Source: a virus
Taxonomy: Duplodnaviria > Heunggongvirae > Uroviricota > Caudoviricetes
DNA: 7,566 bases
Direction: 5' to 3' (one strand)
IMG/VR virus record: IMGVR_UViG_2698536559_000017
The position numbers were made by a program, and so were the translations under genes. This document shows, in pieces, positions 3,512 to 7,566 of this stretch. Each line of letters starts with the position of its first letter. Position 1 is the stretch's first letter. The notes beneath the pieces are model-generated. The model was not told where the DNA came from and ran no database searches. It worked only from the letters and a program-made list of their open reading frames with translations.

Positions 3512-3701
3512 CTCACCCCCTTGATTTGACAGAACACAGGCTGAGGGTGGCGATAAAAATCATCGACCGCAACGCCGGGGAAGGATACGCGAAAGCACAT
3601 CCCGAACTCACCCCCTTGATTTGACAGAACACAGGCTGAGGGTGGCGATAAAAATCATCGACCGCAACGCCGGGGAAGGATATGCGAAAGCACATCCCGA
3701 A
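3512..3701. repeat. tandem direct duplication, 2 x 95 bp, one mismatch (C/T at the GGATACGCG / GGATATGCG position)
   Basis: Unit CTCACCCCCTTGATTTGACAGAACACAGGCTGAGGGTGGCGATAAAAATCATCGACCGCAACGCCGGGGAAGGATA(C/T)GCGAAAGCACATCCCGAA occurs at 3512..3606 and again at 3607..3701. Each unit carries a consensus TTGACA hexamer (3526 and 3621). Confidence 0.9.
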
Positions 3702-3782
3702 CTGATAAGCGCATTCATGACAACGGCGGCGGCAAATTTTGCCACGCTGACAGAGTGGGAGCTTCCGAAGCGGAACAGGTGA
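3642..3782 (+). pseudogene. decayed 3' fragment of a paralog of the 84-aa gene at 7312..7566
   Basis: 3665..3745 aligns to 7405..7485 at about 90% identity, including a 36-bp perfect core CCCGAACTGATAAGCGCATTCATGACAACGGCGGCG. In frame it reads ...GEGYAKAHPELISAFMTTAAANFATL..., against GEGYANAHPELISAFMTTAATSFATL in the intact gene. There is no ATG start; the frame is disrupted by the 95-bp duplication (95 is not a multiple of 3) and ends at TGA 3780..3782. Confidence 0.45.
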
Positions 3783-3814
3783 CAACCATTAACGTTAAAA
3801 CAGGAGAGAAGGCA

Positions 3815-4111
3815 ATGTATGGCAAAAAACTTCACAAGAATGAAGGACTCATCACGATTCACGAAATAACCGCCACCGGCCATGGCTGGTGGGTTGAAAC
3901 AGAGGAGGGTCTTTCTCCGGTGGCTGCATGGGCGCTTTGCGTGATTAGTTATCCTGAAAGCAATGAACCGCATCAGAATATTTTACCCGTGATATCCACC
4001 AGCAAGGGCATGAAACCGGTAGACATCTCTCGCAATGGGTTTAAGTGTGTAATGATGACGGAAAACATGATGGAAGAGATGAGCAAAAACAACTGCGGGA
4101 AACTTCACTGA
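3815..4111 (+). CDS. hypothetical protein (98 aa)
   Basis: ATG 3815 with AGGAG 8 nt upstream (track ORF 3755..4111 begins at an upstream GTG). The next gene follows after 9 bp. No recognisable motif. Confidence 0.55.
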   Translation: MYGKKLHKNEGLITIHEITATGHGWWVETEEGLSPVAAWALCVISYPESNEPHQNILPVISTSKGMKPVDISRNGFKCVMMTENMMEEMSKNNCGKLH

Positions 4112-4120
4112 GGGGGCAGC

Positions 4121-4564
4121 ATGACAGCACAAATATCAGCTTACGGGCGGCTGGTGGCTGACCCACAGTTAAAGACCACCAGCAAGGGGACACAAATGGC
4201 GATGGCAAGTATGGCGGTTCCCCTTCCATGCAGCCAGGCAGATGACGGAACGGCGACGATGTGGTTATCCGTCCTGGCGTTTGGCAGACAGGCCGACGCG
4301 CTGGCAAAGCACCACAAAGGCGAACTCCTGAGCGTGGCGGGTAACATGCAGGTAAGCCAGTGGACAGGTCAGAACGGCGAAACGCGGCAGGGCTGGCAGG
4401 TCATCGCAGACAGCGTAATCAGTGCCCGAACTGTGCGACCGGGCGGCAAAAAAGGCCAGCGGGGGCAGGCTACTGATGCACTGAACAGAGCGAAACAGTA
4501 TGCGGGTCATGGCGTACCTGATGACAATAACGCCGGTGATTTTGATGATGACCTGCCCTTTTAA
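4121..4564 (+). CDS. ssb: single-stranded DNA-binding protein (divergent phage/plasmid-type SSB)
   Basis: 147 aa with GAGGGGG upstream of the ATG. The OB-fold-like N-terminal region (YGRLVADPQL ... WLSVLAFGRQAD ... SQWTGQNGETRQGWQVIADSV) parallels E. coli SSB segments. It has a Gly/Gln-rich linker and the hallmark acidic tail DFDDDLPF at the C-terminus (compare DDDIPF in SSB). Confidence 0.85.
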   Translation: MTAQISAYGRLVADPQLKTTSKGTQMAMASMAVPLPCSQADDGTATMWLSVLAFGRQADALAKHHKGELLSVAGNMQVSQWTGQNGETRQGWQVIADSVISARTVRPGGKKGQRGQATDALNRAKQYAGHGVPDDNNAGDFDDDLPF

Positions 4565-4620
4565 GGCAGGCCATCACACAGGCAGTAAGCAACAAGAAGT
4601 AAGACACAAGAGAGAAAAAA

Positions 4621-5513: not shown

Positions 5514-5550
5514 AGTCAAAGGATACAGAAAAGACATGCGCGGTTAATAC

Positions 5551-5606
5551 TATATTTGTGTTTCATTAATCGCAACAATGGGTGTTATCATTGCAATAAA
5601 TGAAAC
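5551..5606. promoter_or_regulatory. candidate promoter with an imperfect 20-bp-arm palindrome (GTTTCATTAATCGCAACAATG ... CATTGCAATAAATGAAAC) upstream of the four-gene operon
   Basis: GTTTCATT (5560..5567) and AATGAAAC (5599..5606) are exact reverse complements; the inner arms are partially complementary. A TATATT -10-like hexamer lies at 5551..5556 and TATCAT at 5586..5591. No other promoter candidate exists between the terminators and the ATG at 5630. Confidence 0.45.
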
Positions 5607-5629
5607 GGTGATACGTTGTTGGAGGTATC

Positions 5630-5803
5630 ATGAAAACAAAAAACGTAAGGGCCGTACTTCTGGCCCGTGAACAGATAGAGCGCCTTGAGCGGATCCGCAA
5701 CGACGAAGCTGCACGCTCAGCCTACGGCATCAGACCAACCATTCACGAAGTAGCCAGAAAACTCATTGATGAAGCGCTGAATAAAGGGAGCTGTAATGCC
5801 TGA
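5630..5803 (+). CDS. small protein (57 aa), first gene of the operon; possible DNA-binding regulator
   Basis: Not in the ORF track because it is under 60 aa. ATG 5630 has GGAGG 6 nt upstream. It translates to MKTKNVRAVLLAREQIERLERIRNDEAARSAYGIRPTIHEVARKLIDEALNKGSCNA. The stop at 5801..5803 overlaps the next ORF's ATG 5796. The helical, charged character suggests a small regulator or antitoxin-like protein, but no family is recognised. Confidence 0.55.
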   Translation: MKTKNVRAVLLAREQIERLERIRNDEAARSAYGIRPTIHEVARKLIDEALNKGSCNA

Positions 5804-6656
5804 TTTTTTTGGTTATTCGCAATACCTGGGGATCAAGGGTATTTCGCACCTTCTGGGGGGAAGGAGGAAATCCGGAAAAAAATCAAAAAACGCCTCACAG
5901 GCGGCAGTCGGCCAGCAGCCATCAGCTCGCCATAATGCAAAATCCAGGAACAAAGAGGAAAACAACGTGAAAATGTCTTTTTTACATCTCAACAAGGGCC
6001 GTCATGCTGGCGCGGACAACTCTGGCGATACCGTTAATCAGCCTGATGTTCCTGACATCAGCGAAGTAAAGGGCGCTGAATCCCTCTTTCGCAGCAACGA
6101 GCCTGAACCGTTACCCAAAAAACACACACGGGAACATAACGTTTCCGTTTCGGAGGAAGCAAAAAGTAATCCGGTTCTTGCTCTCCGACTTCTGCGGACA
6201 ACCGACCTGAAATCATCCGTCATCATCAAAAAACTACGCGAAGAACCCGAGGCTATTACCGCTTTCACTGAACGGCACATGACAGAGAATTCACCGGAAT
6301 GGGAGTTCGTCAGCGATGAAGACAAAGCCCGTCAGGCGATGATTTATTCGATGGTTAACGATGACAGCAACGGCTATAGTTCCGGCAAGACCGCAGCGCT
6401 GAAAGTGCTGGATGGAATGCGCGACAACTACATAACACAGTCTGAGTTTGATCTCTCGCTGGCGCTTTACAGGGAAAACAACCCTGAAACCCGTCGTATA
6501 GAGGCCAAAAAACTACAGGAGGAATATGCCCGAAAAGCTGCCCGCGAACACGTCAGATACCACCAGGAACTGAAAAAAATCGGACAACAGGTTTCACCGG
6601 ATGACCTGGATGAAGACAAGGTTTACGAAGCCATGAAGCAAAGGTACGCAATATGA
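5796..6656 (+). CDS. hypothetical protein (286 aa), paralog A of the pair; Lys/Arg/Ser-rich N-terminal extension
   Basis: Open frame of 286 codons, with its start overlapping the upstream stop. The first ~59 aa are low-complexity and basic; an internal ATG at 5973 is preceded by GAGGA and is an alternative start. Residues about 125..215 are paralogous to ORF 6653..7315. Confidence 0.7.
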   Translation: MPDFFGYSQYLGIKGISHLLGGRRKSGKKSKNASQAAVGQQPSARHNAKSRNKEENNVKMSFLHLNKGRHAGADNSGDTVNQPDVPDISEVKGAESLFRSNEPEPLPKKHTREHNVSVSEEAKSNPVLALRLLRTTDLKSSVIIKKLREEPEAITAFTERHMTENSPEWEFVSDEDKARQAMIYSMVNDDSNGYSSGKTAALKVLDGMRDNYITQSEFDLSLALYRENNPETRRIEAKKLQEEYARKAAREHVRYHQELKKIGQQVSPDDLDEDKVYEAMKQRYAI

Positions 6657-7315
6657 TATCCAGCCAGCGCCCAGATGAGCAAAGCCCTTTTGCCATTGCG
6701 TCGCCGCCTTATTCAGGCGGCCCCCTCAGTGGCTGGCAATACCATTCAGTCGCACAGGATGACGAGCATGAAGGCGGGCTGGCATCCGTCAGAAAATCAA
6801 ATCCGGCGCACTGCATAGCCACGCATCCGAAGGCAAGGCATAACCCTGTCCTGGCCTTTCATCTCATTCAGTCGGGGGCTAATTTTGCTTATGCAGACAA
6901 ACAACTCAATAACAGTCCCCGCAAACTTTCCGGCTTTACGGATCGTTTTATGGAACGACGGGTGAGCGGCTGGGAACTTTTTTCAGATGAAGAACGCAAC
7001 CTTGCAGCCTTTGCCCGTTCAACATCATTCAACGACGATAACGGCTATATGGCCTCCATGCGTGCCGCTGAAAGGGCACTACAGCGTTATGTTATCCCGC
7101 TAACGCTTAACGAGATGGTCAGGAAAGCCAAAGCCCTTTATGACGATCAGCATCAGGCACAGATTGACGCAGGCCACCAGAGACTGAAACAGATGTTTGA
7201 GAACATGGGATATACCTGGACACCACCGGAAGATCAGAAAGAACCTGACGGTGAAGTAAACAGAAATCCCCAGTATACAGGTGTTTATTTTCGGGATATG
7301 AGTACAGGAATATGA
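6653..7315 (+). CDS. hypothetical protein (220 aa), paralog B of the pair
   Basis: ATG 6653 overlaps the upstream stop (ATGA). Shared motifs with paralog A are NPVLA, FT[ED]R[HF]M, W-E-[FL]-[VF]-SDE-[DE] and NDD-[SN]-GY. No recognised family. Confidence 0.7.
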   Translation: MISSQRPDEQSPFAIASPPYSGGPLSGWQYHSVAQDDEHEGGLASVRKSNPAHCIATHPKARHNPVLAFHLIQSGANFAYADKQLNNSPRKLSGFTDRFMERRVSGWELFSDEERNLAAFARSTSFNDDNGYMASMRAAERALQRYVIPLTLNEMVRKAKALYDDQHQAQIDAGHQRLKQMFENMGYTWTPPEDQKEPDGEVNRNPQYTGVYFRDMSTGI

Positions 7316-7566
7316 GCAGATACAGAAAAAACAAAGTTGTTGCCTCCGGCCTTGCTGAAAGCTGGATGCTTGCGGCGAAAAAAGTCACCGATCGCGTGTT
7401 TGGTGAAGGGTATGCAAACGCACACCCCGAACTGATAAGCGCATTCATGACAACGGCGGCGACAAGCTTTGCCACACTGAACGGTCGTGAGGCAGCCGAA
7501 GCAGCTGAGCTTGTCAGTATTAACGTGAAGTGTGACAGCGGCACGCTGACTGATGAACGGGGTTGA
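7312..7566 (+). CDS. hypothetical small protein (84 aa), fourth coupled gene; intact copy of the fragment at 3642..3782
   Basis: ATG 7312 overlaps the upstream stop (ATGA). The stop TGA at 7564..7566 coincides with the window end. Product is MSRYRKNKVVASGLAESWMLAAKKVTDRVFGEGYANAHPELISAFMTTAATSFATLNGREAAEAAELVSINVKCDSGTLTDERG. Confidence 0.6.
   Translation: MSRYRKNKVVASGLAESWMLAAKKVTDRVFGEGYANAHPELISAFMTTAATSFATLNGREAAEAAELVSINVKCDSGTLTDERG

Follow-up and report, generated by a model that had tools for sequence, protein, structure and literature searches.

Two related genes in a phage-inducible island

The DNA considered here is a 7,566-nucleotide stretch of the virus record IMGVR_UViG_2698536559_000017 (Caudoviricetes), which we call the window and which is part of an Escherichia coli phage-inducible chromosomal island (PICI). 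Two copies of a short direct repeat bracket a segment of this island that includes ssb. We consider it highly probable that these copies belong to two old paralogues of the protein family PHROG 1231, of which the left one (A) is a decayed pseudogene at its native site and the right one (B) is intact, and that the locus reflects ordinary gene-family history and carries no scar of a cassette insertion. The features on which this interpretation turns are as follows.

3672..3749, + strand: left copy of the conserved core (left repeat arm), coding for GEGYAKAHPELISAFMTTAAANFATL; 69 of 78 positions identical to 7402-7479
7402..7479, + strand: right copy of the conserved core (right repeat arm), coding for GEGYANAHPELISAFMTTAATSFATL
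3483..3814, + strand: pseudogene of paralogue A, PHROG 1231, aligned end to end with the intact 81-amino-acid genes of loci L001 and L003
7312..7566, + strand: paralogue B, PHROG 1231, intact, 84 amino acids; its start overlaps the stop of the gene h220 (phrog_1231, E=1.5e-23)

The repeat search records the pair as family D1, with an offset of 3,730 bp. Comparison of the window with itself by blastn aligns 3644-3750 with 7374-7480 at 82% identity over 107 nt (E=2e-25), which is far beyond chance. An earlier reading of this DNA, the original prediction, had described a same-orientation repeat of about 90% identity with a 36-bp perfect core. Both the repeat and the core are present, and the longest perfect run is indeed 36 bp, at 3696-3731 and 7426-7461 (CCCGAACTGATAAGCGCATTCATGACAACGGCGGCG). 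The identity figure was also near the mark, but the coordinates that had been paired (3665..3745 and 7405..7485) are 10 nt out of register and agree at 23 of 81 positions as written. With the register corrected, 3675-3755 and 7405-7485 are identical at 69 of 81 positions (85%), and the best block, 3672-3749 versus 7402-7479, reaches 88%. The left side also holds a third, partial copy of the repeat, which comes from a 95-bp tandem duplication (3512-3606 and 3607-3701); the finding was originally given a start at 3512 because this duplication begins there.

In our assessment, the repeat arms are the conserved central protein-coding motif of two paralogues of one family. Both arms code for the invariant family motif GEGYAxxHPELISAFMTTAA (its core is also written GEGYAxAHPELISAFMTTAA), and they occupy codons 31-56, which is the middle of the 84-amino-acid gene and not its 3' part as had been proposed. 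The phrog_1231 profile is matched by B over positions 9-78 of 83 (83 bits) and by the A orthologue from L001 over positions 3-82 of 83 (E=1.5e-48, 164 bits). Outside the arms, weaker in-frame homology of A and B extends across nearly the entire gene (54% amino acid identity over 74 residues in all). B is identical to WP_062863898.1 of NZ_CP027550.1 (locus L002), and homologues of 81-90% identity are found in the same context. Within PHROG 1231, a phage and satellite family whose members have 80-92 amino acids, B represents a divergent and rare sub-clade, set apart by the sequence of both termini and by its genomic position after h220.

Decay of the left copy at its native site

Intact A genes of 81 amino acids are found in L001 (strain EC12, 9378-9623) and L003 (strain MSHS 133, 11483-11728), where they lie 3' of the primase gene and the iteron region and have a stop that overlaps the start of ssb. 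Intact orthologues occupy the same position in L017-L023, L024 and L025, and across other E. coli PICIs the orthologues of A have 80-92 amino acids and lie between the replication origin and ssb. A multiple alignment reveals that A in the window shares both its GTG start (3483) and its upstream sequence with the intact orthologues of L001 and L003. The left copy had been taken for a promoterless remnant of a gene 3' end; it is instead a whole gene, from the GTG start to the last codons (3814), and what precedes it is the same as in the intact genes, so that the lack of a promoter is not supported. That its frame is disrupted, as had also been claimed, is borne out by three lesions visible in the alignment:

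3500..3506, + strand: lesion 1, a 2-bp deletion at an A-run (A7 plus C/T in the intact genes, A6 here), giving a frameshift and a stop at codon 14
3512..3701, + strand: lesion 2, a 95-bp tandem duplication (3512-3606 and 3607-3701; Tandem Repeats Finder period 95, 2.0 copies, 98%)
3764..3765, + strand: lesion 3, a 1-bp deletion (GAGATTGCC in the intact genes, GAGCTT-CC here), giving a second frameshift

Matches of six-frame translations to the family hidden Markov model (HMM) are accordingly split over three frames in the window, and RefSeq labels the same stretch of NZ_CP027550.1 a frameshifted pseudogene. In strain EC12, A and B are both intact.

The lesions are shared among relatives to different extents. 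By a string test, lesion 1 is common to L002, L007, L031 and L033, and direct reading adds L032, where the string test is negative owing to a nearby substitution; lesion 3 is common to L002, L007 and L031-L033. A single base distinguishes the two 95-bp units (3587 C, 3682 T), which meet at a junction with a 2-nt microhomology (CT), and the duplication also breaks the frame, given that 95 is not a multiple of 3. There is one unit in L007 and L032, two in the window, L031 (with 21 similar contigs) and L033, and three in L002, and the junction sequence occurs in 1 of 5,426 complete E. coli genomes. Because L007 and L032 have the frameshifts with a single unit, the frameshifts are older than the duplication, which is a subsequent polymorphism in length. 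Between the window and NZ_CP027550.1, the number of 95-bp units and a 1-nt insertion or deletion near 5860 are the only differences. We also considered a promoter created by the 95-bp duplication and rejected it: the unit has a TTGACA lacking a -10 element at usable spacing, and a consensus scan does not rise above the shuffle expectation.

An optional gene of 98 amino acids, for which the 3' end of A serves as the ribosome-binding region, stands between A and ssb in the window. It is missing in L001 and L003, and a homologue lies 3' of the intact A in the capsid-forming island L024, so the gene is not the cause of the decay of A.

As a separate observation, the last eight or so codons of the gene that precedes ssb are kept together with ssb (window 3790-3814; L005 6780-6805; L030 2490-2529). 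This tail reads ..VKTGEQTA* in A and ..VKNGEHTA* in a 257-amino-acid protein, is present as a bare remnant in L030, and carries the Shine-Dalgarno sequence of ssb and the overlapping stop and start. The left joint of the ssb block thus lies within the tail of the preceding gene.

Gene content between and around the copies

The remaining genes and elements of the window that matter for comparison with relatives are these.

1378..3195, + strand: D5/P4-type primase-helicase, with PF08706, PF19263 and PF03288 (D5_N, DUF5906, Pox_D5)
3200..3440, no strand assigned: likely iteron-rich replication origin, with eight exact copies of TGTTCACC in both orientations and inverted repeats I1, I2, I4 and I5
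3815..4111, + strand: the optional 98-amino-acid gene, PHROG 27268 (phrog_27268, E=3.8e-41), between A and ssb
4121..4564, + strand: ssb (PF00436, 1.4e-15), the first gene of the block conserved in B-bearing islands
4621..5145, + strand: ProQ/FinO-domain protein (PF04352, 1.4e-24)
5142..5414, + strand: PerC-family regulator (PF06069, 2.1e-33)
5630..7315, + strand: h57 (5630-5803), h286 (5796-6656) and h220 (6653-7315), from tblastn maps and gene tables; function unassigned

The order ssb, proQ/finO, perC, h57, h286, h220, B is constant in all 24 B-bearing loci that we collected, local exceptions aside, and h57, h286 and h220 are immediately 5' of B in every one of them. Where the contig extends far enough, the genes 3' of B are also the same (about 50, 118-126 and 177 amino acids). 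Full synteny, including the downstream part where it is reached, is seen in L001, L002, L005-L014 and L026-L032, and L004 and L033 are truncated by contig ends. The local exceptions are the optional 98-amino-acid gene, an extra 184-amino-acid open reading frame (L026-L029), a deletion of ssb/proQ (L027) and frameshifts in perC (L005-L014). The original prediction regarded the segment between the repeats as variable cargo next to a conserved backbone, whereas the gene order of this segment is the same in every B-bearing locus and it is the replication module to its left that varies. Five arrangements precede the ssb-to-B block, and in the last three of them a profile search finds a single family copy:

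Arrangement 1: D5/P4-type primase with A or the A pseudogene
Arrangement 2: 509-amino-acid DUF5906/Pox_D5 replicase with the A pseudogene (L032)
Arrangement 3: AAA_25 helicase with a 257-amino-acid protein
Arrangement 4: DUF927 protein with a 102-amino-acid protein
Arrangement 5: DUF927 protein alone

The two paralogues are distributed separately. Searches of six-frame translations with the family HMM reveal 17 B-bearing loci that lack A and have another replicase (among them L005, L006, L008-L014 and L026-L030), and 11 collected loci have A followed by ssb and no B (L003, L015 and L017-L025). Among 30 loci examined with the HMM, two family copies are present only in the window, L001, L002 and L007 and a single copy is present elsewhere; a later check with motif strings found the A pseudogene in L031-L033 as well. 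The family core is matched by 1,592 of 5,426 complete E. coli genomes, and A-type genes are present in up to about 1,590 of them (up to about 29%). Three of these genomes carry h220 together with B, and two contain 80% or more of the segment running from the A pseudogene to B.

Relative to other islands, homology to the window breaks at about 3613-3622 (the 5' part of A, which thus contains a mosaic junction), 4110-4117 (the start of ssb), 4494-4506 (the 3' end of ssb), 4681 and 6643/6814, and there is no homology breakpoint at B. With most relatives, the homology around ssb extends from 4110-4117 to 4494-4506. This pattern resembles the mosaic evolution of phages and satellites in that high-identity blocks end at the start of ssb, at its 3' end and in the 5' part of A, and in that a single downstream block is found behind several types of replicase. 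The pair of repeats in A and B is not one of these joints.

Two small disruptions were noticed among these genes. In the AAA_25-type islands L005-L014, perC is frameshifted (about 7791-8060) into a 54-amino-acid open reading frame and a remainder. A 1-nt insertion or deletion in a G-run (about 5853-5860; L002 10285-11144) splits the 286-amino-acid open reading frame into two annotated genes in RefSeq.

Similarity of the core and exchange between paralogues

The 85-88% identity of the arms and their 36-bp run are probably due mostly to strong purifying selection at the protein level. Over the 26-codon core, nonsynonymous divergence (dN) is about 0.05, and the proportion of synonymous differences (pS) between A and B equals that among A orthologues; other members carry synonymous changes there, and the motif is kept in a distant homologue from Methylovulum, and it is for these reasons that we attribute most of the identity to selection on the protein. 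The 36 bp of the window are the family consensus, from which nearly all members differ by a few synonymous changes at most, and such changes inside the 36 bp are seen in A of L001 and L017 and in B of L026 and L030. The run is therefore not invariant at the DNA level.

We also weighed the possibility that the core owes its similarity mainly to repeated conversion or recombination, or to constraint on the DNA or RNA. This would modify our preferred explanation and is compatible with it, and we regard it as unlikely. In its favour, pS between A and B is 0.25-0.41 in the core, no higher than among A orthologues (0.26-0.42), while the flanks are saturated (pS 0.45-0.96, with dN 0.35-0.8); however, the core holds only about 19 synonymous sites, which makes the pS comparison a weak test, and the synonymous differences in the four members named above speak against a constraint on the nucleotides themselves. 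A conversion tract specific to the lineage of the window is not supported, for the two A-like S/T states of its B are shared by divergent B lineages (P0006, P0007 and L004) and are probably ancestral.

The gene at the B position of L004 (P0010) is a hybrid. Its 5' part is B-type (82-84% identity to B genes). Its 3' part is A-type: nt 106-258 of the slice match A of L025 at 87%, and a 122-nt stretch matches A genes from complete genomes at 93%. The downstream flank is again B-type and 97% identical, and on that account the hybrid represents a conversion patch and not a module joint. It points to occasional gene conversion between A and B, which may have added to the identity of the core. A second hybrid with a B-type 5' part and an A-type 3' part (P0009) also fits conversion, although its contig measures just 333 bp and it could be a chimera produced by assembly. 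Hybrids with an A-type 5' part and a B-type 3' part, which would be the deletion product of recombination between A and B, are absent from the 68 protein clusters found with B as the query.

A broader proposal is that E. coli PICIs repeatedly exchange DNA at the core by homologous recombination, whether by conversion between the paralogues of one island or by crossover between islands that share a cell, and thereby reshuffle the variable N-terminal half plus the replication module against the conserved C-terminal half plus ssb, and that islands perhaps tolerate only one functional copy. We hold this to be distinctly improbable. If true, the tolerance of a single copy would hint at a role for the protein in specificity or incompatibility.

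Weighing the explanations

Homology, positions, lesions, copy-number polymorphism and distribution among relatives are direct observations, and the sequence of events that we favour to connect them is as follows. A normally lies just 3' of the island replication origin, with a stop overlapping the start of ssb, and B belongs to a different conserved block, where it always follows h220. The usual shuffling of PICI modules, with joints at the boundaries of ssb, would have placed a replication module made up of the D5/P4-type primase, the iteron origin and A ahead of a block carrying B. The decay of A began with the 2-bp deletion in the A-run, probably by slippage, and the 1-bp deletion, and the 95-bp tandem duplication followed, presumably through slippage on the 2-nt microhomology. 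A may have been lost because B made it redundant, while B stayed intact.

Several points weigh against this account. We infer redundancy as the cause of decay from one evolutionary event and for a protein whose function is unassigned, and all of the pseudogene loci are one lineage, such that the co-occurrence of a decayed A with B may be simple inheritance. The context of B is known mostly from draft contigs retrieved by exact-protein look-ups, which over-sample near-identical islands, and just three complete genomes carry B. Furthermore, if the 9 mismatches of the 78-nt block were placed uniformly, an uninterrupted match of 36 or more would be mildly unexpected (P=0.024). This counts in favour of conversion, and it is compatible with uneven constraint or with a short conversion patch in this lineage.

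The original prediction centred on a different history, in which the copies are recombination anchors and homologous recombination at the 84-amino-acid gene brought in or swapped a 3.6-kb ssb/finO/perC cassette. Direct repeats do bracket the segment, a mosaic junction does lie inside A, hybrids with B-type 5' and A-type 3' parts exist (P0010 of L004, and P0009), and 36 bp of perfect identity is close to the shortest length with which RecA-dependent exchange works in E. coli. However, the left copy is full-length and in its native position and is not a partial copy made by a joint; A followed by ssb is the most widespread arrangement and occurs without B; and the ssb-to-B block is unchanged in the 17 collected loci that have no A upstream and thus lack one of the two supposed anchors. 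Variation lies in the left flank, whereas the genes between the copies are conserved, B sits inside a conserved block with the same downstream genes in all relatives that extend there, and the L004 hybrid, having kept its B-type flank, is a patch that creates no module joint. There is no breakpoint at B, the gene content is constant and the repeat is single-copy nearly everywhere else; the last two outcomes are those that the original prediction had named as refuting it. We find this history very unlikely, and a role of the 84-amino-acid gene as a recombination anchor is not supported. What survives of the recombination idea is the mosaic junction in A and the use of the core for exchange between paralogues at least once; the repeat pair itself is not a joint.

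Duplication followed by decay had been offered as the other possibility. It holds loosely, in the sense that there are two old paralogues of which one has recently decayed. It would be a stricter claim, and one that we find hardly credible, that the 84-amino-acid gene was recently duplicated inside this island and that its left copy then decayed. Such an event would leave two same-orientation homologues in one island, one of them a pseudogene, as is seen here, and a second pair of paralogues, h286 and h220, lies alongside (31-34% identity across about 95 amino acids). Yet A and B are saturated outside the core, the A pseudogene is 89-93% identical in DNA to the intact A genes of other islands and about 82% identical over just 107 nt to its own B, and the distributions of A and B are separate and wide.

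Type of island

The island of NZ_CP027550.1 extends beyond the window to an integrase gene (1701-2921) and an alpA-type helix-turn-helix gene (3876-4100), and PF05930 (Phage_AlpA) is found in sister loci. It lies between rcnR and thiM, is about 15 kb in length, encodes PerC-family regulators and has no annotated phage structural or lysis genes. An integrase with an alpA-type regulator, a primase/helicase and origin of its own, and a length of about 10-18 kb without structural or lysis genes at a defined site are features of a Gram-negative PICI, and the island has all of them. The published description of Gram-negative PICIs such as EcCICFT073, EcCIEDL933 and EcCIMP1 matches this island (PMC6092414; PMC11773190), and the papers as read here do not describe the A/B gene family. 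The island shares with E. coli PICIs the integrase, alpA, the primase and origin, and the PerC-like regulators; in contrast to them, no packaging module was identified in it. Among the relatives with A and ssb are L003, a classical PICI that has genes for a capsid protein and a terminase small subunit, and the capsid-forming island L024.

The label P4-like, which had been applied to this element, fits in part. The island shares with P4-like satellites a D5/P4-family primase-helicase, TGTTCACC iterons, an Icd-like gene, alpA and an integrase. However, the primase scores 97.9 bits against TIGR01613 (the C-terminal region of P4-family primases), under the cut-off of 108.7, and psu, sid and delta are neither annotated in L002 nor found in a Pfam scan of the unannotated island genes, in a search that did not include dedicated Sid and Delta models. 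The TGTTCACC octamer, which we take to be the same as the P4 type I iterons, occurs 11 times in the whole window versus 0.34 expected, with the iterons at 3210-3430. The origin lies between the primase gene and the A pseudogene, which is the native upstream context of A. A structured RNA was considered and rejected: the only Rfam matches are plant miRNA models on the inverted repeats of the origin, far below gathering scores, and represent spurious hairpin matches.

For h57, h286 and h220, no match was found in Pfam, NCBIfam or PHROG. Three genes past B, L002 (12800-13333) encodes a 177-amino-acid protein with an N-terminal helix-turn-helix (HTH_17, 25 bits, just under the cut-off), which may have a regulatory role or resemble a terminase small subunit, as part of a putative packaging module of the island.

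The PHROG 1231 family and its significance

PHROG 1231 is catalogued but uncharacterised. The family has no match in Pfam or NCBIfam, a sequence profile search of the PDB yielded only noise (E>0.7), and Foldseek found no match in the PDB for the AlphaFold2 model of a family protein. This model is a two-helix hairpin of moderate confidence (predicted local distance difference test score of 63), which suggests that the family consists of small helical proteins. A scan of one genome per species recovered two loci, in a Shigella genome and in a Methylovulum metagenome-assembled genome, and at the sensitivity of that scan the family is essentially confined to Escherichia/Shigella.

The Methylovulum locus (L016, 7950-8180) is a distant homologue that keeps GEGYAxxHPELISAFM and lies in a prophage-like region, where it adjoins Rha, a Toprim/DUF5906 primase-helicase and a gpA-type large terminase with a LAGLIDADG insert. 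The A-type proteins (clusters P0012-P0059) combine almost invariant C-terminal two-thirds with at least four unrelated-looking N-terminal thirds, such as MTAKHTKKSQSHALDLTEHWLRV.. and ..RKDRTAPKYKALDMTEHALKV.., and the kind of N-terminus is independent of the replicase family, given that similar N-termini accompany a RepA helicase (L024) and a D5 primase (L015).

Apart from annotating the island correctly, our conclusions have little consequence. A PHROG 1231 pseudogene is the appropriate label for the left arm, as RefSeq has it in NZ_CP027550.1, in place of a recombination scar, and the segment from ssb to B is to be regarded as part of the conserved backbone of the island, not as cargo. The number of 95-bp units (one, two or three) could be used as a fine-scale lineage marker for the island. 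Finally, given that the family is very common and usually lies between the PICI origin and ssb, overlapping the latter, we consider it a reasonable candidate for a replication-associated factor.

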